From IMG/VR virus record IMGVR_UViG_3300009173_000003: 35,804 nt of DNA. One strand, 5' to 3'. The notes beneath the pieces were generated by a model, which was not told where the DNA came from, made no database searches, and saw nothing but the letters and a program-made list of their open reading frames with translations. This DNA comes from a virus. Numbering within the stretch: the stretch's first letter is position 1; every line of letters starts with the position of its first letter. The translations under genes and the position numbers were made by a program. Below are positions 2,758-35,804 of the stretch, piece after piece.

Positions 2758-3393
2758 TTATCCTAGGGTTCGAGATCGCATAGAAATGGAGGAGCCGCTG
2801 TGGAGTTCTCTCTCACCCTGTAGGCGCAGGGTGGTCAATGCTTGATTGAGTCGATTCGTCCACAACGGCATTCGTTCATCGTTTTTCAAATAGGGTTCAG
2901 CCTCCACTAGAGCACCAAACAGGTAAATGTCCGGATTGTTCGTAAGCAGCCAGTTGGTGGTGGCAGAATCAGTCAGCGCCGCAATGCGCGTGTAGTAAAT
3001 AATTGAAGAGGTATATGCTTGATCCGGAGAGCGCAGCACTTCTAACTGATTGCTCGAGCCCCCAATCAATGTGAAATAGTAAGGCTTGCCTGTTCCGGTC
3101 ATCGTAACCCTGAGCTCTGACAAGTCTTCAGGTGACAGGTATTCTAGCACAATAACTGGCTGTAAATCCAACACAATGCGAATAATTTCCAAAGTGTTGG
3201 CAGGAAGCGTAGTATACTGACCACTTATCGAGAAGCTGTCATTTTTCGTAATCATATCCGGAGCACGGATTGTGCGATTGAAACTCGCCTCTGCGAGCTC
3301 GATAAACGTAGGTATCTCCGAAGTCAAATCGGTGCGATCCAGCCAGTTGGCTATCTGAGTTTGCAGTTGGGCGTAAGTGCTGATATTCGCCAT
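2758..3393 (-). CDS. Putative head-to-tail adaptor protein (211 aa)
   Basis: The ORF is coupled by stop-start overlap to the upstream gene (TGATG) and lies 3 nt before the fibre gene. The N-terminus STYAQLQTQIANWLDRTDLTSEIPTFIELAEASFNRTIR resembles, from memory, the adaptor family of BPP-1/epsilon15-type podoviruses. Its position is between capsid and tail genes. Confidence 0.6.
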   Translation of the reverse strand: MANISTYAQLQTQIANWLDRTDLTSEIPTFIELAEASFNRTIRAPDMITKNDSFSISGQYTTLPANTLEIIRIVLDLQPVIVLEYLSPEDLSELRVTMTGTGKPYYFTLIGGSSNQLEVLRSPDQAYTSSIIYYTRIAALTDSATTNWLLTNNPDIYLFGALVEAEPYLKNDERMPLWTNRLNQALTTLRLQGERELHSGSSISMRSRTLG

Positions 3394-3758
3394 CAGATCC
3401 TGCCCGGTCGCGTTTTGAACATTTTGTTATGGGGGTCGTTGAGCCACTTTTTCCAAGTTTTGCCGTGCAGCCCCTTACCCGACATAAAGCCTATACGCAG
3501 CTCGGCCGGCATCTGCTCCATAATCGCCTCCGGAATGCGAGCAACATGATGAAAGGTTTCCTGGGAAGGCTTTAGAGGATTTCCCCACCGGGCATTTTCA
3601 TCAAAACTGTTGTAGTCCATACGATTAATTTCCAGGATCGGCTGAATATCCTGTCGAGTCTGGATAATGCTCCTCTCTTCAATCTGGTCATAATGGTAAA
3701 TTTCAGTCTTACCAGTTTTTTCATCGTATGACAGCAATGCTTCTTTTTTCGTTGACAT
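3393..3758 (-). CDS. Hypothetical protein of the head module (121 aa)
   Basis: ATG at 3758 is preceded by CTGGAG. The stop overlaps the adaptor start by 1 nt. I recognise no motif. Confidence 0.7.
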   Translation of the reverse strand: MSTKKEALLSYDEKTGKTEIYHYDQIEERSIIQTRQDIQPILEINRMDYNSFDENARWGNPLKPSQETFHHVARIPEAIMEQMPAELRIGFMSGKGLHGKTWKKWLNDPHNKMFKTRPGRI

Positions 3759-3770
3759 AATGCTCCAGTT

Positions 3771-3803
3771 AGAGGAGCAGGAGCTGACGCCCCCACTCCC
3801 CTC
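3771..3803 (-). terminator. Strand-specific stem-loop immediately after the capsid gene (putative attenuator or RNA-stabilising hairpin)
   Basis: The minus-strand RNA reads GAGGGGAGUGGGGGC-GUCA-GCUCCUGCUCCUC(U). It forms about 14 bp including 4 G-U pairs, so it folds only in the minus-sense transcript. It starts 12 nt after the MCP stop. There is no U-tract, so it is not a canonical intrinsic terminator. Confidence 0.35.
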
Positions 3804-3815
3804 GAGGTTTGGAAT

Positions 3816-4823
3816 TTAAGCTGCTGTGATTCCAGCAACTATGCCGTGTGCTGCCTCGTTGTTGACTTGCAGACCCCATTCTGAAAGAGCCATGCGTTTG
3901 TCAGCATCACCAGACTTGGCTAGAGCCTCGATGCGATACGGCCGGAGGGTTGCCAAAGCAACTTCGTCAGTATCGATCAAGAAAGCCCAGTCGTTCATCA
4001 ATGCACCAGCACCAGCGTCAATCACTGTCGTGAAGAACCGGTTTGGGACTACTGATAAATTGCCGAAGTCGCTGACGTAGATGTCTGCTGCCCCTATGAT
4101 AACACTTGGCTCAGCTCCATCCACATTGTATCGGCTAGAGGCGATTCCTGAGAATGCACTCACAGCAGATTTATTGAAAGGTGAAACCATCAACATCCGA
4201 GGCTCGCCACCAGACGAAAAACATTCCTGCATCGTGGTCTTGAGCATTGCTTCGGTAAACGCTGTAGGCGTTCCGAAAGACTTCCAGACCTGTGCGGCAC
4301 CTGTCGGGGTCGAACCCGAATAACTAGGTGCAGTTACGTTGGTGGAAGTTTCGTTGGTTTTTAGCCAACCAGGGAAACCAGCAGTTACTCTGGCTGTGGC
4401 CGTGGCTCCGACAACAGCTCCCACTCCGTTGAGTAGGCAAGCAACTTCGATGTTCCTTTTGAGCTCTTTCGCTGCCTTAGCAGCCTGATAACCGACTTCG
4501 CTCTGGCGACCAGCCTTACGCACTGTCTGCTCGGTTCCAGAGATTATGAAGTCAACCATGTTTATCTGAGCATAATTCCCAAGCCGAACAGTAGGTGTAA
4601 CTGCCGTAAATGAGCTCAGATCTTGTCCTTCTACTACCGGGGTAGCTGAGGCAGCGCTGAGGCTGTCAGTCTGCCATTCAAAATAAGTATTTTCGGCTTC
4701 CCGGGTGCCTATATTGCTCTGAAAAGGCGTCTGAGTAGGGGAAATATCAGCGATTAAATCACTGAGGTCCTCTCTGATACCCTTAGCATCATAGGTGAGA
4801 AAGCTATTCGCAACAACTGCCAT
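3816..4823 (-). CDS. Major capsid protein, SU10/DUF5309-like (HK97 fold), 335 aa
   Basis: The N-terminal signature is FLTYDAKGIREDLSDLIADISPTQTPFQSNIGTREAENTYFEWQTDSL. This is the characteristic T-Y-D-x-x-G-x-R-E-D-L...ISP..TPF...EWQ.D.L motif of that capsid family. A GGAG RBS is present, and the gene follows the scaffold gene. Confidence 0.9.
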   Translation of the reverse strand: MAVVANSFLTYDAKGIREDLSDLIADISPTQTPFQSNIGTREAENTYFEWQTDSLSAASATPVVEGQDLSSFTAVTPTVRLGNYAQINMVDFIISGTEQTVRKAGRQSEVGYQAAKAAKELKRNIEVACLLNGVGAVVGATATARVTAGFPGWLKTNETSTNVTAPSYSGSTPTGAAQVWKSFGTPTAFTEAMLKTTMQECFSSGGEPRMLMVSPFNKSAVSAFSGIASSRYNVDGAEPSVIIGAADIYVSDFGNLSVVPNRFFTTVIDAGAGALMNDWAFLIDTDEVALATLRPYRIEALAKSGDADKRMALSEWGLQVNNEAAHGIVAGITAA

Positions 4824-8355: not shown

Positions 8356-9741
8356 CTAAATTACTCCAGCCAAATTCCTTTTCAACTTACCGACACGCCT
8401 CGAGCTCCGGCCGCCCATAGCTGTGCCGGCATCACTCGCAAAGGTTAACACAAATGCGTCTGCACTATCCGGTGACGCTACTCCTCTCTTTTTGAGATCG
8501 CGTTTGCTCTCAATTTTTACGCGACCGCTCGAAGTATAACTATAACGCACGGTGGACAGTTCAGCTTTCAGATTCGGATCTTGGGGCAGTCGAACGTCTC
8601 GACCTTCCAGCCAGGCCTTAGCTTTATACCACAGCTCCGATCTCAGGTTCATGTATTGCGTTCCCATCGCTGGACTCTCCGCGACATTGATTCCGTAGGC
8701 CGGCAATCCGAGTTCACGCAATCGGTCCACGACTCCGGCCCCTAATCCGATTGAATCGACAAAGATCTCTAAAGGCTTGTCATCGGTTGAATCGTATTCA
8801 GCTTTCACTGCCCCGGTTAGCTGCATCGTGTCCAGGTTGCGCCATAGCCGGATCGGTTCCGTAATCGCATTGCCTTTACGTTTACACAGAGCTGAGGCGT
8901 CAGCACCGAATCGTGCAACATCGACACCCCACACACTCGGCCCGTATTGGACCGGTGCAACGTCTCGACTGATCGCTTGCGTGATTAATTCCTGGGCAAT
9001 AACTGTATCATCATCGCCTCTAGGGAACTCGCCCAACACTCGCACTCGATAGACATTGGATTCTTCGCCGTAACGGACTCGGCACTCTTCGATATATTCC
9101 TTGGATACTCGAGTCGTATCCTCACACGACACATGAAATGTTTTCCAGCGTTTGCTCAGTTTGTGAAACGTGTCATAAAAATATCCCGAGCTCCTGACCG
9201 GGTTGCCGGCTAGGACCATTGACGCATGGTGGGCAGACATCGAGCCACCAGCAGCCTCATACACCTGTTCAGGGACACCACTCGCTTCATCACATATCAG
9301 CAGCACACTGTCGGCGTGGACACCTTGCAGGGCATCGGGTTGTTCAGCTCTCGAAGTTTTTGCAGATATGAAGTTGCGTTCTGGGTCCGCGATCAATTCG
9401 ATGCGGTCTGCTTTCACGTTGAACATATCTCGGTAGCCGGTAGGAGCCTGTTTCAGCCATGCTTTCGTTTCCGGCAGCAATGCATCTTGCAGTTGTGCCG
9501 AGGTCGGTGCAGTCATTACGACCTTCGCGTGGTAGTGTGTCGAGATCCACCACAGTGCGAGCCAAGAGAGGCAACTTGTCTTACCAACGCCGTGACCTGA
9601 GCGAATGCTTACTCCTCGAGCTCCGGAGGCTACGGCAATCATAACTTCTTGCTGCCATCTATCTGGCTTGGCTTTCAGAATGCCTTCAACAAACAGAACC
9701 GGATCTTCACGCATCAGAATGAGCTGGTCGGTGTAGCCCAT
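8356..9741 (-). CDS. terL: Terminase large subunit (461 aa)
   Basis: Walker A is SGHGVGKTS. Walker B/coupling is VLLICDEASGV. The C-terminal RNaseH-like nuclease motif is WGVDVARFGADAS. I place the start at ATG 9741 (MGYTDQLILMRED), 1 nt after the stop of the upstream 922-aa ORF. The ORF-track start at 9813 would overlap that gene by 71 nt. Confidence 0.92.
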   Translation of the reverse strand: MGYTDQLILMREDPVLFVEGILKAKPDRWQQEVMIAVASGARGVSIRSGHGVGKTSCLSWLALWWISTHYHAKVVMTAPTSAQLQDALLPETKAWLKQAPTGYRDMFNVKADRIELIADPERNFISAKTSRAEQPDALQGVHADSVLLICDEASGVPEQVYEAAGGSMSAHHASMVLAGNPVRSSGYFYDTFHKLSKRWKTFHVSCEDTTRVSKEYIEECRVRYGEESNVYRVRVLGEFPRGDDDTVIAQELITQAISRDVAPVQYGPSVWGVDVARFGADASALCKRKGNAITEPIRLWRNLDTMQLTGAVKAEYDSTDDKPLEIFVDSIGLGAGVVDRLRELGLPAYGINVAESPAMGTQYMNLRSELWYKAKAWLEGRDVRLPQDPNLKAELSTVRYSYTSSGRVKIESKRDLKKRGVASPDSADAFVLTFASDAGTAMGGRSSRRVGKLKRNLAGVI

Positions 9742-9742
9742 C

Positions 9743-12511
9743 CTATCTTCTTGGGAGCAGTGGTGGCCCAATGGGTGGCTGGAGCAATCCTCTTTGCTGA
9801 TTCTGCTCCTCATCGTCCAGTTGGCGAGCTACTGCACTCGTACCTAGCAGTCCTGGTCCAGTGGCACTATACAACCTTTGTCCCTCTTGTCCCACTTTTG
9901 CTCGCATCTCAGGCGTAATCGCAAACGACTGGTTGGTCATAACTCCAGATTCGGGAGAAGTTTTCAAATGTCCGAGGATTCTGTCCTCATACCTTTTAAG
10001 TGTTCTAAGTTCAGTGGGACTAGCCAATGCTATCCCATCAGCGCCGGGCCTAGCCAATGCTATCCCATCAGCGCTTGTTCCTCCGCTTACTTCCGCAAAT
10101 TCTATCCAGCGTCTGACGAGCGGATCGTCTGCTAACCCTAATTCACTAGCACCTTGTTTAAGCTGGGCCAGGGTTAAATCTTCGGCCCCGTCAGATATGC
10201 GCCCCGATATCGACACACCCTCAATTTCAATACCACCCACTTGGTTGCCATATTTGTTTGTCATTCTCGGAATGATCCTGTCGTAAAAGCCTATCATGCC
10301 TTCGCCACCAACCTCCAGATCCTCGCCTTCAATGCTACGAAACTGTGTCTGTTCCGCCGGAGCTTCGTTTAGCTCTGTGACACGCCTTTCCGCATCGGCC
10401 CGAGTTGAGTGGGACGAGTTCATCCAGCGATCCTGCCCACCCCTCGATTCAAAAACCCTAAAATCTGGCTCTTGGGTAGCCGGGTGGAATGATTCATCGA
10501 TCCAATATTCTATAGATTCGCTGGGTTCTGCTGATAGCAAGCGTTCGGCTGGCTCTTTACCGATATAGTCGGGCAACTGCTCCGGGGTGATGCCAGTTTC
10601 TGAGACGATTGTTTCACCATCCAAGCCATGCGCCTCCAGTTTGCCGGTATTTGGATCGTAATCAATACTTGTAACGTGCTTTCGCAGATCATACAGCTCA
10701 GAGGCTTGCTGACCGCTTGCCCAAGCTACCCTGTCGTAGCCACCATCAACGCCTTCCTGGATCGCTCTTTTCATAGCGAGCTCGGACCATTCGTCAACAT
10801 TTTGGTATGGACCTTGAGGGATCTGACGATCTAATGCATTTCTTGCAAGTATCGCTGCACTATGGCGTTTGTCTGCAGCACTTAGCTTGTTTTGTATTAT
10901 GAACCACTTTTCGCTTTCACCAGGAGGTGCGTTTATATAATTTTTGCCAGCTTGATTAAGATTCACGCCATGTGTTTCCTGCAAAGCCTCTAGCGCTTCA
11001 TCGGCAGCACGAACTTCATCATCTAATGCTCGGGCCTCCTGTGCGTCAACATACCCCCGGTCACGGCCTTTTTGATGCCAGTCGCTTTGGATCTCCTCGA
11101 TGAACAGCACTTTCTCAGGCTCGCCAGTCTTCGGACTGATTACAGTCCTGTCGCTCATACGCAGATGAACGAGTACGTTAGGTTCGGACCAGTGTGAGTT
11201 TGTGAACTCGGCTGTGCGAGGGAAGGCATTAATCTGTTCAGTAAGGGCATCGTATTTTACTTGTATCTCTGAAGGCATCGATGCAGTACCATCGTACCCC
11301 ATTCCTAATTCCTTACGTGCTTTCATTAGGCGGTCGATTTTTTGTTGCCCCTGCGGCTCCAACTGGATCGTGAGTTCCCGGTAATTTTCGCTCGGGCCTT
11401 CAATTCTCGTATCGCTACCACCGAACTTGGGAGTTCCGGGACCGCCGACACCGGCGAGTTCTTCTTGGGCGAGAGTCACCTCATGAACTTCGTCCCACAA
11501 ACCTCTTGCTAGTTCTTCATTTCCACGTTGTCGAGCCTGGTGGGCTTGTCTTTCCAGATCTTGTATCTCAGTCACAAACTCATCTTCATTCCAATGCTCA
11601 TATTCGCCACCTGGGCCGGTTCTTTGCTGTGTTCGCCATGTCTCTTTCAGCTTGATGCCGTTGTCGGCCATGTGTTGCTGCAATTCTGCACGGGTAAACT
11701 TTCTGTCCGGGTTCTCGCCCAACAGCTTAGTAACTCCTGTCCATTCCATCTCACCTTCTGGGATGCCACCCGGTGCTTTTTTTAGCGTGGCAAGCCACTG
11801 TGAGCCTGTTGCTTTGCCCTGTTGTGTATCCAAGAAAAACTTCTCGAGGCGTGAATTGCTTACCGCATCCAAACCACTTCGAGAGGCTTTGATTGCAGCC
11901 CGAGTTGATGCCACGAACGGAACGGCTGCCAGACCGAAACCTGGCACGGCCGAGCCTAGTTCGAGTAGTCCCAATTTTGTGCTGCCCTCCGGGTCGGCCA
12001 ATTCACGCACACCCCTTGTTGCTGCCGCTGCATCGGATATTAGACCGGCGGTGACTTCACTAGCCATCATTCCACCGAATCCGCCAGCTTTGCCGGCACC
12101 AGTCTCTGGGGCTCGAGGCGACCAGGGCTGATCGATAAGGTCTGTAATCCAGCCACCGGGTCCACCGACCGATTCTGCGCCTAGTGTGCGAGCGAGATCA
12201 AGCAAGCCACGCGGAGTTTCACGGGCCAAACCTCTGCCGAAATCTCCTACCATACGAGGCACCGAATAACGGAGGTGGTCGAGAATCTTTTTTTTACGCG
12301 ATGGTTGTGGCCCGATCCACGGGTAGCCTGGCATACCAGCCATCGCACGTTGCCGGTTGGTTTCTTGTGCCATAGCGAGTGGGTCCATCTGTCCCACAGG
12401 ACTTTCGGCCCATTGCTCTGCGTCTCCCAACAATGAAGGTGGCCGTCTGCCTCCGGGTGGTGGTGGGTTTTGATTTAGCAACCCGTCAACGTGTCCAGGA
12501 ATATGTGGCAT
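9743..12511 (-). CDS. Large uncharacterised multidomain protein (922 aa); candidate virion-delivered 'polyvalent'-type protein
   Basis: Long uninterrupted ORF, abutted 1 nt from terL and 6 nt after the 533-aa ORF. It has a P/G-rich N-terminus followed by a G/A-rich hydrophobic segment (GFGGMMASEVTAGLISDAAAA...GSAVPGFGLAAVPFVAS). Internal motifs include WLATLKKAPGGIPEGEMEWTGV, NVLVHLRMSDR...VLFIEEIQSDWHQKGR and GYDRVAWASGQQASELYDL. I recognise no enzymatic signature with certainty. Confidence 0.8.
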   Translation of the reverse strand: MPHIPGHVDGLLNQNPPPPGGRRPPSLLGDAEQWAESPVGQMDPLAMAQETNRQRAMAGMPGYPWIGPQPSRKKKILDHLRYSVPRMVGDFGRGLARETPRGLLDLARTLGAESVGGPGGWITDLIDQPWSPRAPETGAGKAGGFGGMMASEVTAGLISDAAAATRGVRELADPEGSTKLGLLELGSAVPGFGLAAVPFVASTRAAIKASRSGLDAVSNSRLEKFFLDTQQGKATGSQWLATLKKAPGGIPEGEMEWTGVTKLLGENPDRKFTRAELQQHMADNGIKLKETWRTQQRTGPGGEYEHWNEDEFVTEIQDLERQAHQARQRGNEELARGLWDEVHEVTLAQEELAGVGGPGTPKFGGSDTRIEGPSENYRELTIQLEPQGQQKIDRLMKARKELGMGYDGTASMPSEIQVKYDALTEQINAFPRTAEFTNSHWSEPNVLVHLRMSDRTVISPKTGEPEKVLFIEEIQSDWHQKGRDRGYVDAQEARALDDEVRAADEALEALQETHGVNLNQAGKNYINAPPGESEKWFIIQNKLSAADKRHSAAILARNALDRQIPQGPYQNVDEWSELAMKRAIQEGVDGGYDRVAWASGQQASELYDLRKHVTSIDYDPNTGKLEAHGLDGETIVSETGITPEQLPDYIGKEPAERLLSAEPSESIEYWIDESFHPATQEPDFRVFESRGGQDRWMNSSHSTRADAERRVTELNEAPAEQTQFRSIEGEDLEVGGEGMIGFYDRIIPRMTNKYGNQVGGIEIEGVSISGRISDGAEDLTLAQLKQGASELGLADDPLVRRWIEFAEVSGGTSADGIALARPGADGIALASPTELRTLKRYEDRILGHLKTSPESGVMTNQSFAITPEMRAKVGQEGQRLYSATGPGLLGTSAVARQLDDEEQNQQRGLLQPPIGPPLLPRR
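10020..10074. repeat. Perfect 25-bp direct repeat with a 30-bp period inside the 922-aa gene
   Basis: ctagccaatgctatcccatcagcgc occurs at 10020-10044 and again at 10050-10074. This encodes the in-frame duplication ADGIALARPG / ADGIALASP. Confidence 0.9.
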
Positions 12512-12517
12512 CTAGTC

Positions 12518-14119
12518 TTATCGCATCCAGGGTGCGGCATTCAGTGACTGAGGTAGGAAGCGTTTGCCTTCTCTCATCTCCTGAAAGTATTGCAGCAGTC
12601 CTTCGGCCGTGTCGTCATAGCCGCCAGCTATGCCGAACTCATCAATGTTCCCAAAGCCTAAATTGGAGATCTGGTTCGCCTCTCTGATAGCTCGTTCCGT
12701 TATACTTTGGAACGTACCCGGTGGCGTTTCGGGTATAGAAATCCCTAGAACCCTGCCACCTTCCCACCTAGCTCCTTGAGCTGACGAACCTGTAGGCAAT
12801 CCATGTTTTTTGGCAGACCGAACGTATGGCCTCGAGAAATTTTGGTATGATGGCGCGTTTGGCGTCAGCAATCCCGTTCCTTTCTCATTGAAAAAATAAT
12901 CATTTTTACTGAATTTTGATGTATCGAATATATCCGGCACCCCCCCTCGATACGGGGTTGGCAGTCCTAGGGCTGCTTTTCGCAGTTCTGGGATTCGCTG
13001 GATTATCCAGTTGGCGCTTCCACCCTCATGCACATCCATAGGGACGTTTCCTCCGGCCAGATTAACGTCTAGACTTCCCTTGCCGCTTAGTGCATTATCG
13101 AACGAAGGAGTTTTCCAACTCCCTGCCCCGGGGGATGGCGATCCATCTGCCATCGGAGCGAGCCAGCCTCTATCGGCCTGTCTGCGCCCTGTCTCAAGCA
13201 TCGTTTCTAACCCATACGGGCTACGGAACAATGCATTCGGATAGATCGACCTATAAATTTTTTGAGCTTCTTTTATCGAAATGTTGTTTTGTCGTGCAAA
13301 GTTAACGATTGACGTTTTCATCAGTTGAAGGTCTACTGGCGATCTAGGAGAAGTCGCGGCGCCTATGATATTAAATTCATCAAAACTCATGCCGGGAGAA
13401 TTTTCTGGCATTCTTTCCAGTATGCCTCCGGTCTCATACCACTTTTCACCACCGACATCGATGCCGGCCTCTACTTGTTCATCTATGAGGTCTTGAACTT
13501 TTTCGCTATTTGCCCACCGCTCACTGAGCTCGGTGGGTTTTGTTCGTGGTGTCGGCGCGATGGGATTCGGCTGATCGGGGTGAGGAAGGCGTGTGCCTTC
13601 AATCTTCGGAGCGTTGCGTCTAAATAATTTTATGCTTCCGACCAGCTCTTTCAGCGAAGCGCCGGCGATAGGCAGGCCCAGGCCGGCTGTAGCCCACATC
13701 GCCCTGGGCAAATCTTTGTCCTCGATAGCGGCGATTAGGTCTACAAGGTCGATTGCCATGTCCGGACCAGGAATCATTCCAAATCCTATGAGGGCTCCTG
13801 TCTCCTCTAGTGTCTCGGGCTCGACTAATCTTCGCAGTTGGCGCCACAACGTGTCATCGTCCGGGTCTTGTTCTTGAGCTCGGTGAGGGAAGTCTGGATC
13901 TGGTAGTGATTCCAGCAATCCGGGCGCCTGTTCCGGGAATGCGTAGCCCTCTTTCAGTGGCCCAAACTGGGGTTCTTCTTCTCCCCCGTATGCCAGTGTC
14001 AGTTCGAGTGGGGCTCCTTCAGTCGGATACTCATGTGGTATGCCCTGATACGACATCCAGCCTTCTTTTGGCAAAGCCATCGTAGGATCAAAACCTTGGT
14101 GTGGTCTGCCTTGGTGCAT
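12518..14119 (-). CDS. Large uncharacterised protein (533 aa), paired with the 922-aa protein
   Basis: Its ATG overlaps the stop of the preceding small ORF (TAATG). The N-terminus is acidic and Pro-rich. It is followed by the hydrophobic segment LIGFGMIPGPDMAIDLVDLIAAIEDKDLPRAMWATAGLGLPIAGASLKELVG. The C-terminal roughly 350 aa are globular with no motif I can name. Confidence 0.8.
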   Translation of the reverse strand: MHQGRPHQGFDPTMALPKEGWMSYQGIPHEYPTEGAPLELTLAYGGEEEPQFGPLKEGYAFPEQAPGLLESLPDPDFPHRAQEQDPDDDTLWRQLRRLVEPETLEETGALIGFGMIPGPDMAIDLVDLIAAIEDKDLPRAMWATAGLGLPIAGASLKELVGSIKLFRRNAPKIEGTRLPHPDQPNPIAPTPRTKPTELSERWANSEKVQDLIDEQVEAGIDVGGEKWYETGGILERMPENSPGMSFDEFNIIGAATSPRSPVDLQLMKTSIVNFARQNNISIKEAQKIYRSIYPNALFRSPYGLETMLETGRRQADRGWLAPMADGSPSPGAGSWKTPSFDNALSGKGSLDVNLAGGNVPMDVHEGGSANWIIQRIPELRKAALGLPTPYRGGVPDIFDTSKFSKNDYFFNEKGTGLLTPNAPSYQNFSRPYVRSAKKHGLPTGSSAQGARWEGGRVLGISIPETPPGTFQSITERAIREANQISNLGFGNIDEFGIAGGYDDTAEGLLQYFQEMREGKRFLPQSLNAAPWMR

Positions 14120-14286
14120 TATCGGTAGCCTTTCCTGGCCTTACGCCGGTGTGAGGCATCGCCGACATTCATCTTCAGGGCTTTCAAGTGGGCGAGCGCT
14201 GCACTGCGATTCTTGTGGACCTTGAGAGGTTTCCAGCCATTAGCGAGTTCCACCTGGACAGTCGTGTCCTTGATGCGGTATGGCAT
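14119..14286 (-). CDS. Small basic protein, 55 aa (below the ORF-track cutoff)
   Basis: Manual translation gives MPYRIKDTTVQVELANGWKPLKVHKNRSAALAHLKALKMNVGDASHRRKARKGYR. The ATG at 14286 directly abuts the TAG of the upstream ORF. Its TAA overlaps the ATG of the 533-aa gene. Confidence 0.6.
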   Translation of the reverse strand: MPYRIKDTTVQVELANGWKPLKVHKNRSAALAHLKALKMNVGDASHRRKARKGYR

Positions 14287-14511
14287 CTAAGCTGTGTAGT
14301 CTCCGAATCCAGATGTGCCGGCCTGTGTAGGTCGCTTGGTCATTCCGAGCATCCTCTTCAGACGTTGTCCCTGGCGAGGGTTGGTCACCCGAGACATTGC
14401 GTCAGTAATCGCTGTCCGTTCGTTGCCAGGCACTTGAGACGCCTGAGCTTGACGGGCTGCAGCCATCCCAGCCGGGGTGTACGGAAATTTCCTTCCAGCG
14501 ACATTAGGCAT
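14287..14511 (-). CDS. Small hypothetical protein (74 aa), first gene after the putative promoter at 14.56 kb
   Basis: The ATG is preceded by GAAGAGGAAC. The N-terminus is MPNVAGRKFPYTPAGMAAARQ. It is followed with no gap by the 55-aa ORF. Confidence 0.65.
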   Translation of the reverse strand: MPNVAGRKFPYTPAGMAAARQAQASQVPGNERTAITDAMSRVTNPRQGQRLKRMLGMTKRPTQAGTSGFGDYTA

Positions 14512-14554
14512 ACGAGTTCCTCTTCTCAGATCACAGACGAATTACCCACCACCT

Positions 14555-14584
14555 ACTATGCCACAATATGTGGCGTTTCGTCAA
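14555..14584 (-). promoter_or_regulatory. Putative promoter with an operator-like palindrome in the spacer
   Basis: The minus strand reads TTGACG (14584-14579), then 18 nt, then CATAGT (14560-14555). The 15-bp palindrome GCCACAATATGTGGC (14560-14574) fills the spacer. It lies about 45 nt upstream of the 74-aa gene. Confidence 0.3.
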
Positions 14585-14606
14585 ATCGTGAGCCAGCGGC
14601 ACGGGT

Positions 14607-14684
14607 GGAACAAGCACTATTGGGTTAACTCCATTAGAGAGTAGATATAGGAGTAAAGCATATTAACCCTGTTCCGCTTGTTCC
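14607..14684. other. Nested inverted repeats that could form a 78-nt two-tier stem-loop
   Basis: GGAACAAGC (14607-14615) pairs with GCTTGTTCC (14676-14684), 9 bp. GGGTTAA (14622-14628) pairs with TTAACCC (14663-14669), 7 bp. The two helices are separated by a symmetric 6x6 internal loop. The structure begins 2 nt after the stop of the 82-aa gene and has no U-tract. Confidence 0.5.
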
Positions 14685-14686
14685 GT

Positions 14687-14935
14687 TCATTCGTCTTCGC
14701 AAAGATCCTCGATGGTTTCAAACTCTTCCGCATCTAAGAAAATCGGCTGGCTCTGATCCACCTGGGCACACATAATATTTTCCATGCAGCTTCTCGCATC
14801 GTGATAGTTAATGCCGTCTTTTTTTATCAGTATCTCGATACATTTGTTTACACTGTAGACCAGCCTGGACTCTTGAACGGCAACGTCATAGGTCTTCCCG
14901 ATAACTGCCTTGTCAAATCCGTCAGCTTTCAACAT
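14687..14935 (-). CDS. Conserved small phage protein (82 aa), function unknown
   Basis: ATG at 14935 is preceded by GGGAGG; the ORF-track start at 14938 is a GTG one codon upstream. The sequence MLKADGFDKAVIGKTYDVAVQESRLVYSVNKCIEILIKKDGINYHDA resembles, from memory, a widespread small phage protein family (GFDDAIIG...KCIEIL). Confidence 0.7.
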   Translation of the reverse strand: MLKADGFDKAVIGKTYDVAVQESRLVYSVNKCIEILIKKDGINYHDARSCMENIMCAQVDQSQPIFLDAEEFETIEDLCEDE

Positions 14936-14998
14936 CACTGCCTCCCGTAGTTTATTTAGTTTTTTAATACTTACTTAGTTACTATTGTCTCGTTGCCC

Positions 14999-15156
14999 TG
15001 TCTTGACCCCTGTCCCGTGAGGTGTCTTTTTAGGTGTCTAGACCCTAGTTCCTGGAAACCCTGAAAGCCTTATAAACACTGCCTTCCTACTACCCTGGAA
15101 GGTGTCTAGAAGTATGCCATTTAAGGTGTCTAGAAAGGTGTCTTGACCCCCTGTCC
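14999..15156. repeat. Iteron-like array: five AGGTGTCT direct repeats bracketed by a 17/18-bp direct repeat, with TGTC cores phased at 12 bp
   Basis: AGGTGTCT occurs at 15020, 15032, 15100, 15124 and 15136. TGTCTTGACCCCTGTCC is at 14999-15015 and TGTCTTGACCCCCTGTCC at 15139-15156. TGTC cores sit at 14999/15011/15023/15035 and at 15103/15127/15139/15152. The array is in the 224-nt non-coding gap between the 77-aa and 82-aa genes. Confidence 0.85.
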
Positions 15157-15162
15157 GCGAGA

Positions 15163-15396
15163 TTAGGTATTTTGGTCCATCTTTTCGAGCTGATTTTTGG
15201 TCAACTTTATACCCTGATCTTGTAACCAATTTTGGACCGATTCGGCCGTTAAGCAGCTCTTCGTAGTGGCAATATCCCTGAGAGTAGCCATCACTACCTG
15301 GAGCAACTTACGATGTGGGTCACCGACATGATAAAACTTGACCCGGCCCTGGAGCTTGTCCGCTAAATCTAAAACTTCTGCTTTGCTTACTGCCAT
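15163..15396 (-). CDS. Hypothetical protein (77 aa)
   Basis: The ATG overlaps the end of the upstream ORF by 10 nt. I recognise no motif. Confidence 0.65.
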   Translation of the reverse strand: MAVSKAEVLDLADKLQGRVKFYHVGDPHRKLLQVVMATLRDIATTKSCLTAESVQNWLQDQGIKLTKNQLEKMDQNT

Positions 15397-15755
15397 AATT
15401 TTCTCCGAATTTTTTTGAGTAAATAGTGTATGTTGAAGTGCTCAATATGACCGGCCCTTACTTTTTGTCCGGGGGTCAACTTTTTCGATCTGACCCCAGG
15501 ATCGACCCCGTCCCAATGTATAAAATCCCACCGAATATGCAGCCTCGGCCGTGGATTCCTACGCATAATCCTGATGTCCGATAAACAATGGCTTAGGTAG
15601 GCCATTTCGTATTGCGTATAATAGATATTATCGGAAGCTGTGCTGAGATCGGCAATGATCTTATGCATAATGATGCATAGCCTCCGACTCGCCTGGCTCC
15701 AACCAAACTGTCCCAGTTTGCCTGAGCCGGCCTGGTCGTACGGTTCTAGTTCCAC
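15387..15755 (-). CDS. Hypothetical protein (122 aa from GTG 15755; first ATG at 15668)
   Basis: The open frame is coupled to the next gene. The start is uncertain: either GTG with AAGGG 11 nt upstream, or the internal ATG. Confidence 0.5.
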   Translation of the reverse strand: MELEPYDQAGSGKLGQFGWSQASRRLCIIMHKIIADLSTASDNIYYTQYEMAYLSHCLSDIRIMRRNPRPRLHIRWDFIHWDGVDPGVRSKKLTPGQKVRAGHIEHFNIHYLLKKIRRKLWQ

Positions 15756-15813
15756 GAACCTAAACCCTTGCAGGACAACGACTTACGGCATCGTTCTCGG
15801 GTGCGAGTGTGGG

Positions 15814-15836
15814 TTCGGGGTCCATATACCCCCGAA
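15814..15836. other. GC-rich hairpin after the 107-aa gene
   Basis: TTCGGGG (15814-15820) pairs with CCCCGAA (15830-15836) across a 9-nt loop. It lies 4 nt downstream of the stop at 15840. There is no U-tract on either strand. Confidence 0.4.
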
Positions 15837-15839
15837 GAC

Positions 15840-16163
15840 TCAATACCCTGCATGGTACTTAGCTTTTAGCACTCCGAACACTCTGACACCATCCTCGAGC
15901 AGTCTACGCTCTTCCGGGAGCAGATCACAGCTATCTAGCATCTCTTTAGCGTGAGTCCTCCAGTTGTTATACCACAGCACATTATACTGGCTTACACACG
16001 CTGTATCGAACCAGAGTGCAGCCTGTCGTGATCCTAGCCATATCATCGAGTCATGGTACTCAGCCTCGGTAGGAGCAGTCGTATTCTTTGCCCCATGTTT
16101 CTGCATATCTCTCACGGCTCTTAGGACAACCGCCAGCGCCAGGTATCGAGTCGCTTTGTCCAC
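15840..16163 (-). CDS. Hypothetical protein (107 aa)
   Basis: The GTG start overlaps the terS TAG by 1 nt and has GAGGGTGAG upstream. The N-terminus is ATRYLALAVVLRAVRDM. Confidence 0.6.
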   Translation of the reverse strand: MDKATRYLALAVVLRAVRDMQKHGAKNTTAPTEAEYHDSMIWLGSRQAALWFDTACVSQYNVLWYNNWRTHAKEMLDSCDLLPEERRLLEDGVRVFGVLKAKYHAGY

Positions 16164-16663
16164 TACTCACCCTCAACGATCTCAACATCTAGAACCTCGA
16201 CCTCGGCCAGTTGCCTAGCTTCCTTGGCCCGTTCTTGTGCCATCCGTTCGACCTCTTTCAGCGAGCTCAGGAACTCGTCCCCGATTTGGATACCGATAGC
16301 CGCCACCATCTCCGGCTTCCCAAACTGATTTCGATTAAACTTCTCAGCCAACCATTTCCGTGTGTCCGATTGCAGTCTAGCGACCTGGACATTCGATGGG
16401 TCAGCATCATCGGCAATCTCAAGCGCCTCTTCTGCGTACTGGGTCGCCCTGATCTCCATAACCGATTGCCACTTCGACCACCTCTCGGCCGTCTCCTTCA
16501 GCCAGCTATAGTACACCCCGTGCGACATCCTTCCAACTTCGCTCGGCATATTCTTGAGCAGCTTCCTCACTGACCCATGCTTCAAGTACAATGCAAAGAC
16601 TTCATCCTCTCCGTACTTTGAAAGTTTGCGGCCGATACTTCGGGTAAGTTTTGCTCCTGACAT
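16163..16663 (-). CDS. terS: Terminase small subunit, Sf6 gp1-like (166 aa)
   Basis: ATG at 16663 has GGAGAA 9 nt upstream. The N-terminal HTH-like region is VFALYLKHGSVRKLLKNMP...VYYSWLKE. Further along comes ...ALEIADDADPSNVQVARLQSDTRKWLAEKFNRNQFGKP. This parallels the Sf6 gp1 motif AKARLRVDTRKWALARMNPRKYGDK as I remember it. Confidence 0.65.
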   Translation of the reverse strand: MSGAKLTRSIGRKLSKYGEDEVFALYLKHGSVRKLLKNMPSEVGRMSHGVYYSWLKETAERWSKWQSVMEIRATQYAEEALEIADDADPSNVQVARLQSDTRKWLAEKFNRNQFGKPEMVAAIGIQIGDEFLSSLKEVERMAQERAKEARQLAEVEVLDVEIVEGE

Positions 16664-23806: not shown

Positions 23807-24425
23807 TTAAGGCTCCGGCAACGAATCCCACTGCTGCCATCCACCAGTCGGCTTTGAGTCTCAAGCCAAACGAAGGCGAGGTAGCGTTTCTAAGGGCGGT
23901 GATCTGAGAGTCTTGGATCATCGCCCTCTCTTCATGCTCCACGATCACGGAACGTAGGCTTAGAACCAGGGCATTCGATTGTGTGGCCCTCATTCGCTCT
24001 GCGGCCGTCAACGCTCGTTCGACTTCTATGACTTCCTCTAAACTAGCTATCTGTATCTCGTAGCTATCTACTACCAGGTCCAGCTCTAACACTTGAGTAG
24101 AGTCCAGGCTTGCCCTCAAGCTCTGAGAGAGCTCCTCTGTCCGCTCGCGTTCGTTTTCTTGCGCCCTTACCAGCCTGGCTACCTCGAACTCCGCTAAGGC
24201 TCTCTGGGCGATAACTGCTGAATCAGCCCGGGCGAGTTCTTCGCCTAACGAATCTGCCACCGACTTTACCGAGTCCAACACAACTTCCTGAACCTCTAGC
24301 CTTTGTTCGGCATCATCGGCTATGCCACGATAGTAGCTGGCCTGAGTAGCACCACGAATACCTACGGCTAGTAGCCCTATCAGTGGAACCACAATCCATG
24401 CCCACCCCGGAATCCTAGTTGGCAT
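23796..24425 (-). CDS. Coiled-coil membrane protein in the spanin position (209 aa)
   Basis: It is the last gene of the lysis cassette and overlaps the endolysin 3' end by 11 nt. The N-terminal TMD is GWAWIVVPLIGLLAVGI. A long E/A/R/L-rich helical region follows. The C-terminal hydrophobic segment is WWMAAVGFVAGALI. The protein has no cysteine. Confidence 0.5.
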   Translation of the reverse strand: MPTRIPGWAWIVVPLIGLLAVGIRGATQASYYRGIADDAEQRLEVQEVVLDSVKSVADSLGEELARADSAVIAQRALAEFEVARLVRAQENERERTEELSQSLRASLDSTQVLELDLVVDSYEIQIASLEEVIEVERALTAAERMRATQSNALVLSLRSVIVEHEERAMIQDSQITALRNATSPSFGLRLKADWWMAAVGFVAGALITK

Positions 24426-24909
24426 TAGTTCCCCACCTCGCAGGGGCTATTCTGTCGAGCTTACCTCGAATATCAATGTGAGTGAAATTCTTATATCGGC
24501 CGATCCCGAACTCGGCAGCATCCTTATGGGACTTGAACCAGTCGGCTACTTGTCGATGCGTCCAGCCTATTTTCGTAATGTCGGCAGCTCCTCCGGTTGT
24601 GTGCATAGAATTGGTGACGCCACCAATGGTGTAATTGTACAACTTGGAACGATACCAGCTATTGATCAGCACAGGCCCAAATGGTGCAGTCTCTCGTAAT
24701 TCACACAGGAGCTCGCATAAGATTAATGCTGTCGGGATTTTGTCTTCTGCTGGAGCTTTCAGTATCGATTTCCATCGAGGTCGATCATGGGTCGAAGCTA
24801 TCGCTATGGCTTCCCGGCCAACGTCTGCAATCTCTAGCGGATGAAAATTCTTGATGCCTTTCGCCTGGAGTGCAGCTCCGCACACAGCAACCCATTCATC
24901 TTTCGTCAT
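24415..24909 (-). CDS. Endolysin, peptidase M15 (VanY/M15_3-like zinc peptidase), 164 aa
   Basis: The motifs are INSWYRSKLYNYTIGGVTNSMHTTGGAADI ... FGIGRYKNFTHIDIRG, which supply the H-x(6)-D and H-x-D zinc ligand pattern of M15 peptidoglycan peptidases. The gene lies between holin and spanin-position genes. Confidence 0.85.
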   Translation of the reverse strand: MTKDEWVAVCGAALQAKGIKNFHPLEIADVGREAIAIASTHDRPRWKSILKAPAEDKIPTALILCELLCELRETAPFGPVLINSWYRSKLYNYTIGGVTNSMHTTGGAADITKIGWTHRQVADWFKSHKDAAEFGIGRYKNFTHIDIRGKLDRIAPARWGTNAN

Positions 24910-34601: not shown

Positions 34602-35804
34602 CTATAAGTCTTCAACTTCCTCTGGTTTTTCTGCTTCTAAAATCAATACACCATCATCGTCTGTGATTGTACTGGCGTGATATGTCGGGTCATCTCTCTC
34701 AGCCACGACCATCCAACTAACTGTATCGGTGCTAGTCGTGTCCTTGCAACTGATAATCAGCGTTGAGCCTGACACCGATCCTTTCAGTGCTGACCACCCT
34801 GTATCATTCTGTAAAAATACCTGCGGATCACGACACAGGGCTTCCCAAGTGCCATCGCTCATACCAGCAGATTCATCTAGGTCCACGCTGGCAGTTCCAC
34901 CCGAAAGGGCTACAGAAGAACGATAAATTAAATCCGCACGGGGACCCTCAATACACGCATGGGTCAAGGTATGTGTATCTGCCATATCTGTGAGAGGATG
35001 ATCGATACGGAAAGACTTGGAGGCGGCGGCTATATCCCCACCTACAGTTACATCTTGTCCATCTATCATCAACGCATAGTCGGTGTGGAGTGTAGCATTG
35101 CCAGTTAAATAGAATTTCTCATCGACACCCCTGACTCCATGTTGCCAGAAAAACGTTCCGCCTTCGGAGTATTCAACCGTTGCTGTGGCACCCCCTGCGT
35201 TACCGAGTATCTGGATAGATGGATTTCCTGAATCTGATGCAAATTTGAAGTTGTCTGTCCCTTCAGTGGTAAAGCATATTGTATCTGCCGCAGATTCTCG
35301 CATATATGTATTACCACCACCATCTAGGTAAATCTTGTTTGTAGCTGGTATGGTAATATCAGCACCAGTAGTGACTGCTCCTGTAAGCAGAGATGTCCCA
35401 CTGACGTCCAAATTGGCATTCATATCCACTAGCGTGGTGTCTATTTGAACCTCTGGACCACGAAGGCTCATCACTGCACCCGCTGATCCATTAGTTATAA
35501 CATTGAGCAGCATCTCCCCATCTTCCGTGCCGTCTTCTACATCGTGGGATTTGGTGGTGATCTGTGCATAGGTAACTAGTTCGTCTGCATCGTTGCGTCC
35601 CTGAGAGTAGATTCTACCTAGTGTATCACCATCTGCTGGGTTGGCAGTGTCTCTGTCCAATAGTATAAGCGGTCCAGCACTAGCATCATCATCGGTGCAT
35701 TTCAACTGTAGGCCAGCAGAGTTGTCTGCCCTTGTTCCATAGATGGTATTATACACATCAAGATAGCCAGCGAGATTTACATTACCGTCAATGTCTACTG
35801 CGTC
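34602..35804 (-). CDS. Tail fibre protein, C-terminal part (same gene as 1-2754 across the circular junction)
   Basis: The frame is open from the right window edge to the TAG at 34602, 401 codons, of which the top 41 duplicate positions 1-123. The C-terminal region is ...FRIDHPLTDMADTHTLTHACIEGPRADLIYRSSVALSGG... This resembles conserved distal tail-fibre modules I have seen, though I cannot name the family. Confidence 0.85.
   Translation of the reverse strand, partial: DAVDIDGNVNLAGYLDVYNTIYGTRADNSAGLQLKCTDDDASAGPLILLDRDTANPADGDTLGRIYSQGRNDADELVTYAQITTKSHDVEDGTEDGEMLLNVITNGSAGAVMSLRGPEVQIDTTLVDMNANLDVSGTSLLTGAVTTGADITIPATNKIYLDGGGNTYMRESAADTICFTTEGTDNFKFASDSGNPSIQILGNAGGATATVEYSEGGTFFWQHGVRGVDEKFYLTGNATLHTDYALMIDGQDVTVGGDIAAASKSFRIDHPLTDMADTHTLTHACIEGPRADLIYRSSVALSGGTASVDLDESAGMSDGTWEALCRDPQVFLQNDTGWSALKGSVSGSTLIISCKDTTSTDTVSWMVVAERDDPTYHASTITDDDGVLILEAEKPEEVEDL
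35682..35804. repeat. Exact 123-bp terminal direct repeat (copy 2 of 2)
   Basis: Identical to 1-123. Confidence 0.95.

Follow-up and report, generated by a model that had tools for sequence, protein, structure and literature searches.

A variable gene slot upstream of the large terminase gene in uncultured phages with SU10-type head genes, and candidate virion-delivered proteins with a shared leader

Organization of the terS-terL interval

The viral genome IMGVR_UViG_3300009173_000003 of the IMG/VR collection carries its small and large terminase genes, terS and terL, well apart from each other. The window, i.e., the whole stretch of 35,804 nucleotides that was analyzed, has terS at 16163-16663 and terL at 8356-9741, both on the minus strand, and the distance from the end of terS to the start of terL is 6,422 bp. 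All genes of this interval are on the minus strand and are read from high to low coordinates. They fall into a regulatory part next to terS, a late promoter followed by two small genes (p74 and p55), and two large genes (p533 and p922) that reach up to terL. In phages P22 and Sf6, terS adjoins terL. The original prediction, made from the sequence of the window, therefore took the interval for an island that separates two otherwise adjacent genes. The analysis described here deals with the interval as a whole and, above all, with the slot between p55 and terL in which p533 and p922 lie.

The 166-aa product of terS matches the Pfam family Sf6_terminase (PF20901) with 47.2 bits (cut-off 27) and phrog_1482 with an E-value of 1.3e-15. 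A profile built from this protein and six relatives finds the Sf6 gene 1 protein in the PDB (3hef, 4dyc, 4dzp) at E ~1e-10 over residues 41-121. By these matches the protein is a genuine Sf6-type small terminase, which settles a doubt raised with the original prediction, that the terS assignment could fail. The 461-aa product of terL matches Terminase_6N (33.8 bits, cut-off 22) and phrog_2 (E 9e-47). Directly downstream of terL is an SU10_portal gene, followed by the genes for the scaffold, an SU10-type capsid protein and an SU10-type adaptor. The proposed spacing of 6.4 kb between an Sf6 gp1-like terS and terL thus stands.

The notion of an island between otherwise adjacent genes does not. 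Eighty further loci were collected via terL, with terL identities of 71-96%. Both terminase genes are on one stretch in 10 relatives, and all 10 have them in the same order, 3.8-7.4 kb apart, down to 79% terL identity. The long contigs L003 and L004 share the gene order: DnaB-like gene, 106-aa gene, Sf6-type terS, small open reading frames (ORFs), 74-aa gene, 55- or 64-aa gene, large protein(s), terL and portal. Relatives in which nothing lies between p55 and terL still have no terS within 3.1-4.5 kb upstream of terL. Separated terminase genes also occur in another terminase lineage: the distant 55-kb phage contig L090 has terminases of other families, a Terminase_2-type terS and a Terminase_6C terL, that are ~5 kb apart with terS upstream and several opposite-strand genes between them. 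Since both the relatives and L090 have it, the separation is taken to be ancestral to the group. The 6.4-kb interval is best explained as the layout usual in one clade of phages, uncultured and for the most part marine, whose portal, capsid and adaptor genes are of the SU10 type. Isolate phages gave no match to the whole interval in Megablast, nor to p533 and terS in tblastn; tblastn of p922 gave two partial matches only.

A foreign mobile element, or a recent horizontal island inserted between terS and terL, is a highly improbable origin for the interval and was rejected. The G+C content is lower, 0.45-0.48, around 14.5-16.0 kb, and one gene with its hairpin (p83, see below) looks like a local insertion, as a mobile origin would have it. 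Family scans found no integrase, transposase or homing endonuclease in the interval, however, and the G+C content of p533 and p922 is 0.49-0.56, like the rest of the genome. The separation and the gene order common to all 10 relatives, and the same layout in L090, argue further against such an origin.

The variable slot between p55 and terL

The genes p533 (12518-14119, minus strand) and p922 (9743-12511, minus strand) encode the two large uncharacterised proteins of 533 and 922 aa that had been described as abutting terL, and their codons do adjoin. The 533-aa protein consists of a leader containing a conserved element named motif B (~aa 91-160) and a C-terminal domain (~aa 165-510). The 922-aa protein has a leader with motif B (aa 1-~205), a folded core (~215-885) and a disordered tail. 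The downstream edge of the slot is terL; the upstream edge is p55 (14119-14286, minus strand), which encodes a small, basic protein of 55 aa. It is the most conserved of the small genes, with the pattern MPYR..GW..H..A..HL.AL..NV and with M1, P2, Y3, R4, G17, W18, A30 and H33 invariant in a 25-member alignment (A5). A PDB sequence profile search with p55 gave nothing credible.

A p55 homolog is found upstream of terL in 45 loci, and these were surveyed for the contents of the slot, its span being measured from the end of p55 to the start of terL. The span is 3-37 bp, i.e., the slot is empty, in 13 of the 45. Slots of 0.3-1.8 kb carry ORFs of 77-122 aa, or else proteins with a lysozyme domain and, after them, a transmembrane coiled-coil protein of 92 aa. 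In those of 1.2-3.4 kb there are ART-PolyVal proteins (405-439 aa), proteins of the p533 type or proteins that are 841-937 aa long. The largest load, 4.3-4.4 kb, is found in L003 and the window only.

The flanking genes are nearly constant between genomes that differ in the slot. In L003 and L004, respectively, terL is 96 and 92% identical to that of the window, the portal 93 and 91%, and the DnaB-like protein 93 and 86%, whereas p533 is 31 and 58% identical; p922 is 49% identical in L003. In place of p922, L004 has an unrelated 433-aa protein that matches ART-PolyVal (34.9 bits, cut-off 31.2). DNA homology resumes at position 9742, next to the terL start codon, in L004 and L011, and at 9717, just inside terL, in L014. 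Presence/absence variation is confined to the p55-terL segment and to the p83 gene with its hairpin. The comparison speaks for cassettes exchanged at one fixed site and not for gradual drift, and the position between p55 and terL is best explained as a recombination hot spot that takes up gene cassettes. This part of the genome had been singled out as the most accessory-looking, and it is in fact the most variable. A check of synteny in relatives, suggested with the original prediction, gave a divided answer: the gene order is common to all 10, but the large ORFs are not constant, as the slot content swaps.

A different kind of content is seen in 12 relatives (L044, L047, L050, L055, L056, L061, L062, L064, L068, L069, L070 and L074). 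Their slots carry combinations of a PF00959 lysozyme-domain protein (249-426 aa) and a small membrane protein of 92-94 aa with an N-terminal transmembrane segment and a coiled coil, spanin- or holin-like; in some, a small zinc-ribbon protein rich in Cys is also present. Such content resembles a lysis cassette, at the place where the window has p533 and p922. Thus the slot is not reserved for effectors, because some relatives carry a lysozyme and a transmembrane coiled-coil protein in it.

The shared leader and domain shuffling

When the N-termini of the slot proteins are aligned, they have in common i) the start (MPHxPxH, MHQGRPH or MAHTPFH; M-x-H-x-P-x-H); ii) a variable linker; and iii) the ~70-aa motif B, with the consensus PET..A.L.G....P..G.AID..D......D.D..R..WA.AGL.LP..G. 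Motif B is rich in Gly, Ala and Leu and is partly hydrophobic. The leader matches no Pfam family, the models of polyvalent-protein domains (LPD) included. A hidden Markov model of motif B was scanned against all ORFs of at least 60 aa in the window and 90 loci. It matched slot proteins only, except for P0019, which follows the capsid gene in L005, and P0008 (L006 and L007), which adjoins a 2342-aa LPD38 protein in L006. Both are in structural modules of other phages. In L090 (8001-12222) an 884-aa motif-B protein lies directly before terL and the SU10-type portal.

The leader and the C-terminal domains occur in different combinations. A full HMMER search of a 1.84-billion-protein library with the p533 family profile gave 194 matches (clusters at 50% identity). 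Among the best 150 of the 194, ~55 clusters have a match to motif B only, which starts in the first ~155 residues (mostly the first 80) of proteins 112-884 aa long, and ~80 match the p533 C-domain alone, often at the end of proteins of 800-2300 aa. In L042 a 680-aa protein has an N-terminus of the p922 type fused to a C-domain of the p533 type. The proteins of one group (cluster 3) are 60% identical to the first ~225 aa of p922 and have different C-termini, with nothing shared after that point. A Pfam scan of the large p533-C-domain proteins and the motif-B proteins found as partner domains one GNAT and one ART-PolyVal only.

Many slot proteins also have a short 'GLL(N/E/Q)..P(D/P)P' motif close to their N-terminus, and p922 ends in the similar GLLQPPIGPPLLPRR (window 9743-9870). 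It is present in 10 of 29 leaders and in 5 of 320 background ORFs; this enrichment largely reflects homology within clusters, and no claim is drawn from it.

The p922 core and the p533 C-terminal domain

More than 100 homologs of p922 were found. Their conserved core (~aa 220-760) has the near-invariant residues H440, N445, H449, R451, R455, E472, E473, Q475, S476, D477, W478 and H479. This pattern suggests an active site, and the core is predicted to have, probably, an enzymatic activity. The AlphaFold model of p922 is a confident multi-domain core, with a predicted local distance difference test (pLDDT) score mostly above 90 for residues 215-885, and a disordered leader. Foldseek with the whole-chain model gave no match in the PDB at E <= 0.001. 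In BFVD it matched large uncultured-phage proteins only, several of them named ART-PolyVal-like, LPD or LT_GEWL. Distant homologs of the core are fused to LPD23, InPase, ART-PolyVal, MuF_C and Portal_Mu, and in MW202675 a p922 homolog follows the portal gene and an M15-peptidase protein. The core is thus homologous, by sequence, to modules of bona fide polyvalent proteins, and the BFVD fold matches agree. The AlphaFold2 model of p533 is poor (pLDDT 38).

The family scans (Pfam, PHROGs and NCBIfam) covered all proteins of the interval. Besides those of terS and terL, the sole match kept is that of p83 to phrog_13182. Weaker matches to phrog_7348 'endolysin' (3.5e-4), DUF5101 (below the cut-off), CBP30 and Sensor were treated as noise.

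Candidate functions of the slot proteins

The slot proteins are probably polymorphic effectors that are packaged in the capsid and injected with the DNA. The synteny, the variability of the slot, the shared leader, the domain shuffling and the links to domains of polyvalent proteins are observed, and from these we infer the encapsidation, injection and biochemical activities of p533 and p922. According to this model, the motif-B leader would recruit the slot proteins into the assembling procapsid, and the proteins would exit with the genome at infection. The C-terminal domains would then act on the host, the ART-PolyVal alleles by ADP-ribosylation and the p922 core by its probable enzymatic activity. 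An undescribed payload for host takeover, anti-defence or as virion-delivered effectors had been proposed for the interval. The effector part of that proposal fits the fusions of p922-core homologs, and the interval does carry accessory, effector-like cargo under a conserved promoter of its own; the slot is not dedicated to such cargo, as it holds lysis-type cassettes in some relatives.

Genes in the late operon next to terL and portal could instead encode essential internal or ejection proteins, such as T7 gp14-16 or P22 gp7/16/20. In that case p533 and p922 would be fast-diverging structural parts of a trans-envelope channel. The Gly/Ala/Leu-rich, partly hydrophobic composition of motif B would suit such parts, as would the homologs in structural modules of other phages. 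Essential parts are hard to reconcile with a slot that is empty in 13 of 45 loci and filled elsewhere with unrelated ART-PolyVal or lysozyme cassettes, or with C-terminal domains that are swapped between leaders. Furthermore, the window has a tail/virion module apart from the slot that could supply the core ejection functions; its proteins measure 1277, 514 (phrog_3287, virion structural protein), 1132, 490 and 608 aa. An ejection apparatus is therefore an unlikely identity for the two proteins.

The lysis-type genes in the slot of other relatives (PF00959 lysozyme and 92-aa transmembrane coiled-coil protein) raise another alternative, that the slot proteins are late accessory proteins which act, unpackaged, in the producing cell. 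They might serve superinfection exclusion, DNA or nucleotide metabolism, or the timing of lysis, with the leader as a localisation or interaction module, e.g., for the membrane or the terminase. This would also agree with the lack of a recognisable effector domain in p533 and p922. The lysozyme cassettes, however, do not have the leader, and motif-B proteins and p922-core homologs recur beside portal, capsid and MuF_C genes and in Portal_Mu fusions, a neighbourhood known for virion-borne polyvalent proteins (PMC5512222). Nor would an ADP-ribosyltransferase made only late be of obvious use unless carried to the next host, for which T4 Alt is the precedent. Action confined to the producing cell is, on balance, unlikely.

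Several points weigh against packaging and injection, the explanation preferred here. Some relatives have a lysozyme and a transmembrane coiled-coil gene in the slot, and therefore position alone is no sign of packaging. Among the window proteins scanned, none was recognised as a prohead protease or as being of the MuF type. Disorder is predicted for the leader region, and its role as an address tag is deduced from its distribution only. Neither p533 nor p922 has a match in Pfam, NCBIfam or PDB sequence profiles from which an activity could be read. The relatives are all metagenomic contigs. The loci with empty slots are short fragments, in which tagged proteins could be encoded elsewhere; one of them, L075, has a 308-aa motif-B protein (3390-4316) upstream of p55, so a tagged gene can sit on either side of p55.

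A more far-reaching proposal is possible, though it falls short of probable. Motif B together with M-x-H-x-P-x-H may be a portable, undescribed signal for both capsid targeting and ejection of an effector system encoded upstream of terL in phages with SU10-type portals. Its two orphan cargo domains, the p922 core (H-N-H-R-R / EE-QSDWH) and the p533 C-domain, may be new enzyme families acting in the first minutes of infection. The repeat array described below could then be a packaging (pac) site read by the detached TerS. If the leader is such a tag, it would provide i) a sequence handle for injected effectors in abundant uncultured marine podophages; ii) a possible tool for loading foreign proteins into these capsids; and iii) two widespread orphan domains that point to early host-manipulation or anti-defence activities.

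The repeat array between the terminase genes

The regulatory part of the interval spans from 16163 down to ~14555, with ~1.3 kb between p107, the gene next to terS, and the late promoter. Its most prominent element is a direct-repeat array (14986-15161, minus strand) of RGACA(CC) cores in a 12-bp register. There are nine RGACA cores, in a cluster of four (15156, 15143, 15131 and 15107) and a cluster of five (15039, 15027, 15015, 15003 and 14990), with 68 bp between the clusters. The sequence AGACACCT occurs five times, all within 15020-15143; 1.18 copies are expected, and none of 100 shuffles reached five. The TGTC array reported in the original prediction at 15.0-15.15 kb is thus well founded. 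The array is kept in L003, L004, L010, L011, L013 and L014 and is present with drifted repeat units in L016, L026 and L076. In the more distant relatives the unit drifts to GCGGACACC, GCGAACACC and GTAACA, and it does so together with the divergence of terS.

The array adjoins p77, with terS ~1 kb upstream of it and the late promoter 50-230 bp downstream. Its 4 + 5 repeats have the layout of a pac site, in which clusters of direct repeats flank a central region near the terminase genes. A pac site of the P1/SPP1 kind would fit this two-sided layout, the place between the terminase genes and the co-drift with terS. In P1, hexamer repeats are on both sides of the cut region, and SPP1 has pacL-pacC-pacR, like the 4 + 5 repeats around a ~55-68 bp spacer here; the array likewise has terS on one side and terL on the other and stands where the late operon begins. 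The P1 and SPP1 sites are inside or just before terS, whereas the array is ~1 kb downstream of it. An operator array fits equally well by its place upstream of the late promoter beside p77, and a replication origin would also fit, with repeats next to an A/T-rich block. The conserved array between terS and terL is a directly testable pac or regulatory candidate.

Small genes and the conserved non-coding block

The terS gene is the next-to-last of the replication/middle string (DnaB-like, p116, terS, p107). Its stop overlaps the start of p107 (15840-16163, minus strand, 107 aa) as TAGTG, and p107 is translationally coupled to terS. The p107 protein is 58-74% identical in close relatives and has no family match. 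It is followed by a conserved non-coding block of ~440 bp (15397-15839, minus strand; alignment A6). Eight diverged genomes have this block in common at the DNA level; it contains invariant boxes, and its indels are of non-triplet length. It contains i) a GTAAGTCGTTG box, which occurs once here and twice, exactly 151 bp apart, in L014, L026, L076 and L087; ii) a group of boxes GGTTTAGGT..GGAACTAGAACCG..GACCAAACCAGTTCAG (GACCA); iii) a promoter-like ATAAT..TATTATACG element (ACATAATG.ATATTATACGAA); and iv) a C-run. A promoter candidate in this block is at ~15627-15655. RNA structure at 15.7-15.8 kb in the block received no support from covariation, and Rfam and tRNA scans of the window found nothing. 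A hairpin at 15.8 kb, listed in the original prediction as a notable structure, is not significant (7-bp stem, z = -0.86).

Six small ORFs, of 107, 122, 77, 82, 74 and 55 aa, had been counted in the interval. Their coordinates and the other sizes are correct, but the '82' is 83 aa and the 122-aa ORF (15387-15755) is probably spurious, judging from its sequence context. It lies inside the conserved non-coding block with its non-triplet indels, no ORF was called there in L003 or L004, and tblastn matches L003 as two pieces only, with a frameshift between them. The next gene, p77 (15163-15396, minus strand, 77 aa), ends directly at the repeat array. A 16-member alignment (A4) has the invariant residues R18, F21, G25, R29, L58, L65 and Q69. 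No PDB or family match was found for p77, which we regard as a candidate DNA-binding protein.

The late promoter and operon

Beyond the array, at 14942-14985 on the minus strand, a stop block closes all three frames (AATAGTAACTAAGTAA) and an A/T-rich stretch (AAAAAACTAAATAA) comes next. Both are present in seven genomes, the window and its relatives L003, L004, L010, L011, L013 and L014. The distance from the stop block to the late promoter is 52-55 bp in five relatives and 401 bp in the window, because p83 and a hairpin have been inserted between them. The p83 gene (14687-14938, minus strand) is an accessory gene of 83 aa that matches phrog_13182 (function unknown) at 7e-11. It is absent from L003 and L004 and occurs at this position in the window only; p83-like genes are found elsewhere in L022, L084 and L085, in the latter two directly upstream of terL. 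Directly after p83 is an imperfect hairpin with 22-nt arms (14607-14684, minus strand; -29.1 kcal/mol, z = -3.4), which one of 200 shuffles folds as well. Together, p83 and the hairpin (14607-14938) form an insertion of ~350 bp that is missing in six relatives with the same promoter. The hairpin may be a terminator or an insertion scar.

The late promoter (14555-14584, minus strand) is sigma-70-like, TTGACG-N18-CATAGT with a TG upstream of CATAGT. Its hexamers are conserved, with a varying spacer, in the same seven genomes as the stop block. Both the inverted repeats and the promoter-like element predicted at 14.55-14.68 kb are borne out by these data. The promoter is the likely start of the late operon (packaging, head and tail). 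Its first gene is p74 (14287-14511, minus strand, 74 aa), and from there through p55, p533 and p922 to terL each stop codon adjoins or overlaps the next start. The string continues with portal, scaffold, capsid, adaptor, tail genes and endolysin. Expression of these genes from their own promoter together with the packaging and head genes, as first proposed, is thus supported by the conserved promoter and the tight p74-terL string. The gene order in the clade shows terS in what is predicted to be an earlier transcription unit and terL in the late operon, with the repeat array between them.

The late string can be followed around a circle. Positions 1-123 of the window are identical to 35682-35804, and the contig closes into a circle of 35,681 bp; this 123-bp overlap is compatible with headful packaging, though no proof of it. 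Starting at the promoter at 14.56 kb, the string passes without a break through the M15 endolysin gene (24415-24909) and reaches 23796. The junction is bridged by a minus-strand ORF of 1277 aa (2754 to 1, then 35681 to 34602), the homolog of an 879-aa gene located after the adaptor gene in L003. Because of this ORF, those on the plus strand at 110-2845 are antisense artefacts, and a '384-aa' ORF at 34602-35756 is a fragment of it.

Relation to known injected proteins

According to Iyer et al. (2017, PMC5512222), phage polyvalent proteins are expressed late from genes that neighbour those of the late virion proteins, and the prediction is that they are injected together with the DNA. Several features of the slot are shared with them. 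The p922 core is homologous to a module in large phage proteins that carry ART-PolyVal, InPase, LPD23, MuF_C or a Mu-type portal, and the slot allele of L004 is itself an ART-PolyVal protein. The late virion gene setting is also alike, with p533 and p922 immediately upstream of terL and portal. Polyvalent proteins are chains of 2-15 known domains, whereas p533 and p922 are 'solo' or two-module proteins without Pfam polyvalent domains and do not show the two or more recognisable disparate activities by which polyvalent proteins are defined. The slot proteins of the window differ further by the motif-B leader and by their constant place directly before terL.

T4 Alt, a packaged ADP-ribosyltransferase, has been taken as the model for ART domains (PMC5512222). 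T-even phages package Alt and the internal proteins IPI-III in the head and inject them together with the DNA, and Alt parallels the ART allele of the slot. The T-even internal proteins are a diverse set whose only common feature is a capsid targeting sequence (PMC3012670). They have no sequence similarity to the slot proteins, whose packaging would follow by analogy. The T4 targeting sequence is ~10 residues long and is removed by the prohead protease, whereas the shared leader region here is 70-200 aa. T4 is also another type of phage; the window has a podovirus-like, SU10-type head module.

The MuF polymorphic toxins of temperate phages likewise combine a conserved, head-linked N-terminal module with a variable C-terminal effector and are encoded beside portal and terminase genes (Jamet et al. 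2017, PMC5576092). One distant homolog of the p922 core carries MuF_C. The proteins p533 and p922 differ in that they have no MuF or Phage_Mu_F match at E <= 1, and no candidate immunity gene follows p922. There is no room for one, as the p922 stop is followed by terL after 1 nt and the p533 stop by p922 after 6 nt.

The Dar proteins of phage P1 (DarA, DarB, Hdf, Ddr and Ulx) are large accessory proteins that are packaged into the capsid in an orderly manner, are injected and protect the incoming DNA; their genes are linked to head morphogenesis. DarB has recognisable methyltransferase and helicase domains. In contrast, p922 has no such domains, and no homology between them was found. The principle of diverse injected proteins with a shared targeting element is already established by the T4 internal proteins, the P1 Dar proteins, the MuF toxins and the polyvalent proteins. 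The undescribed leader common to the slot proteins and the two orphan cargo domains, which are new here, extend that principle and do not amount to a new concept.

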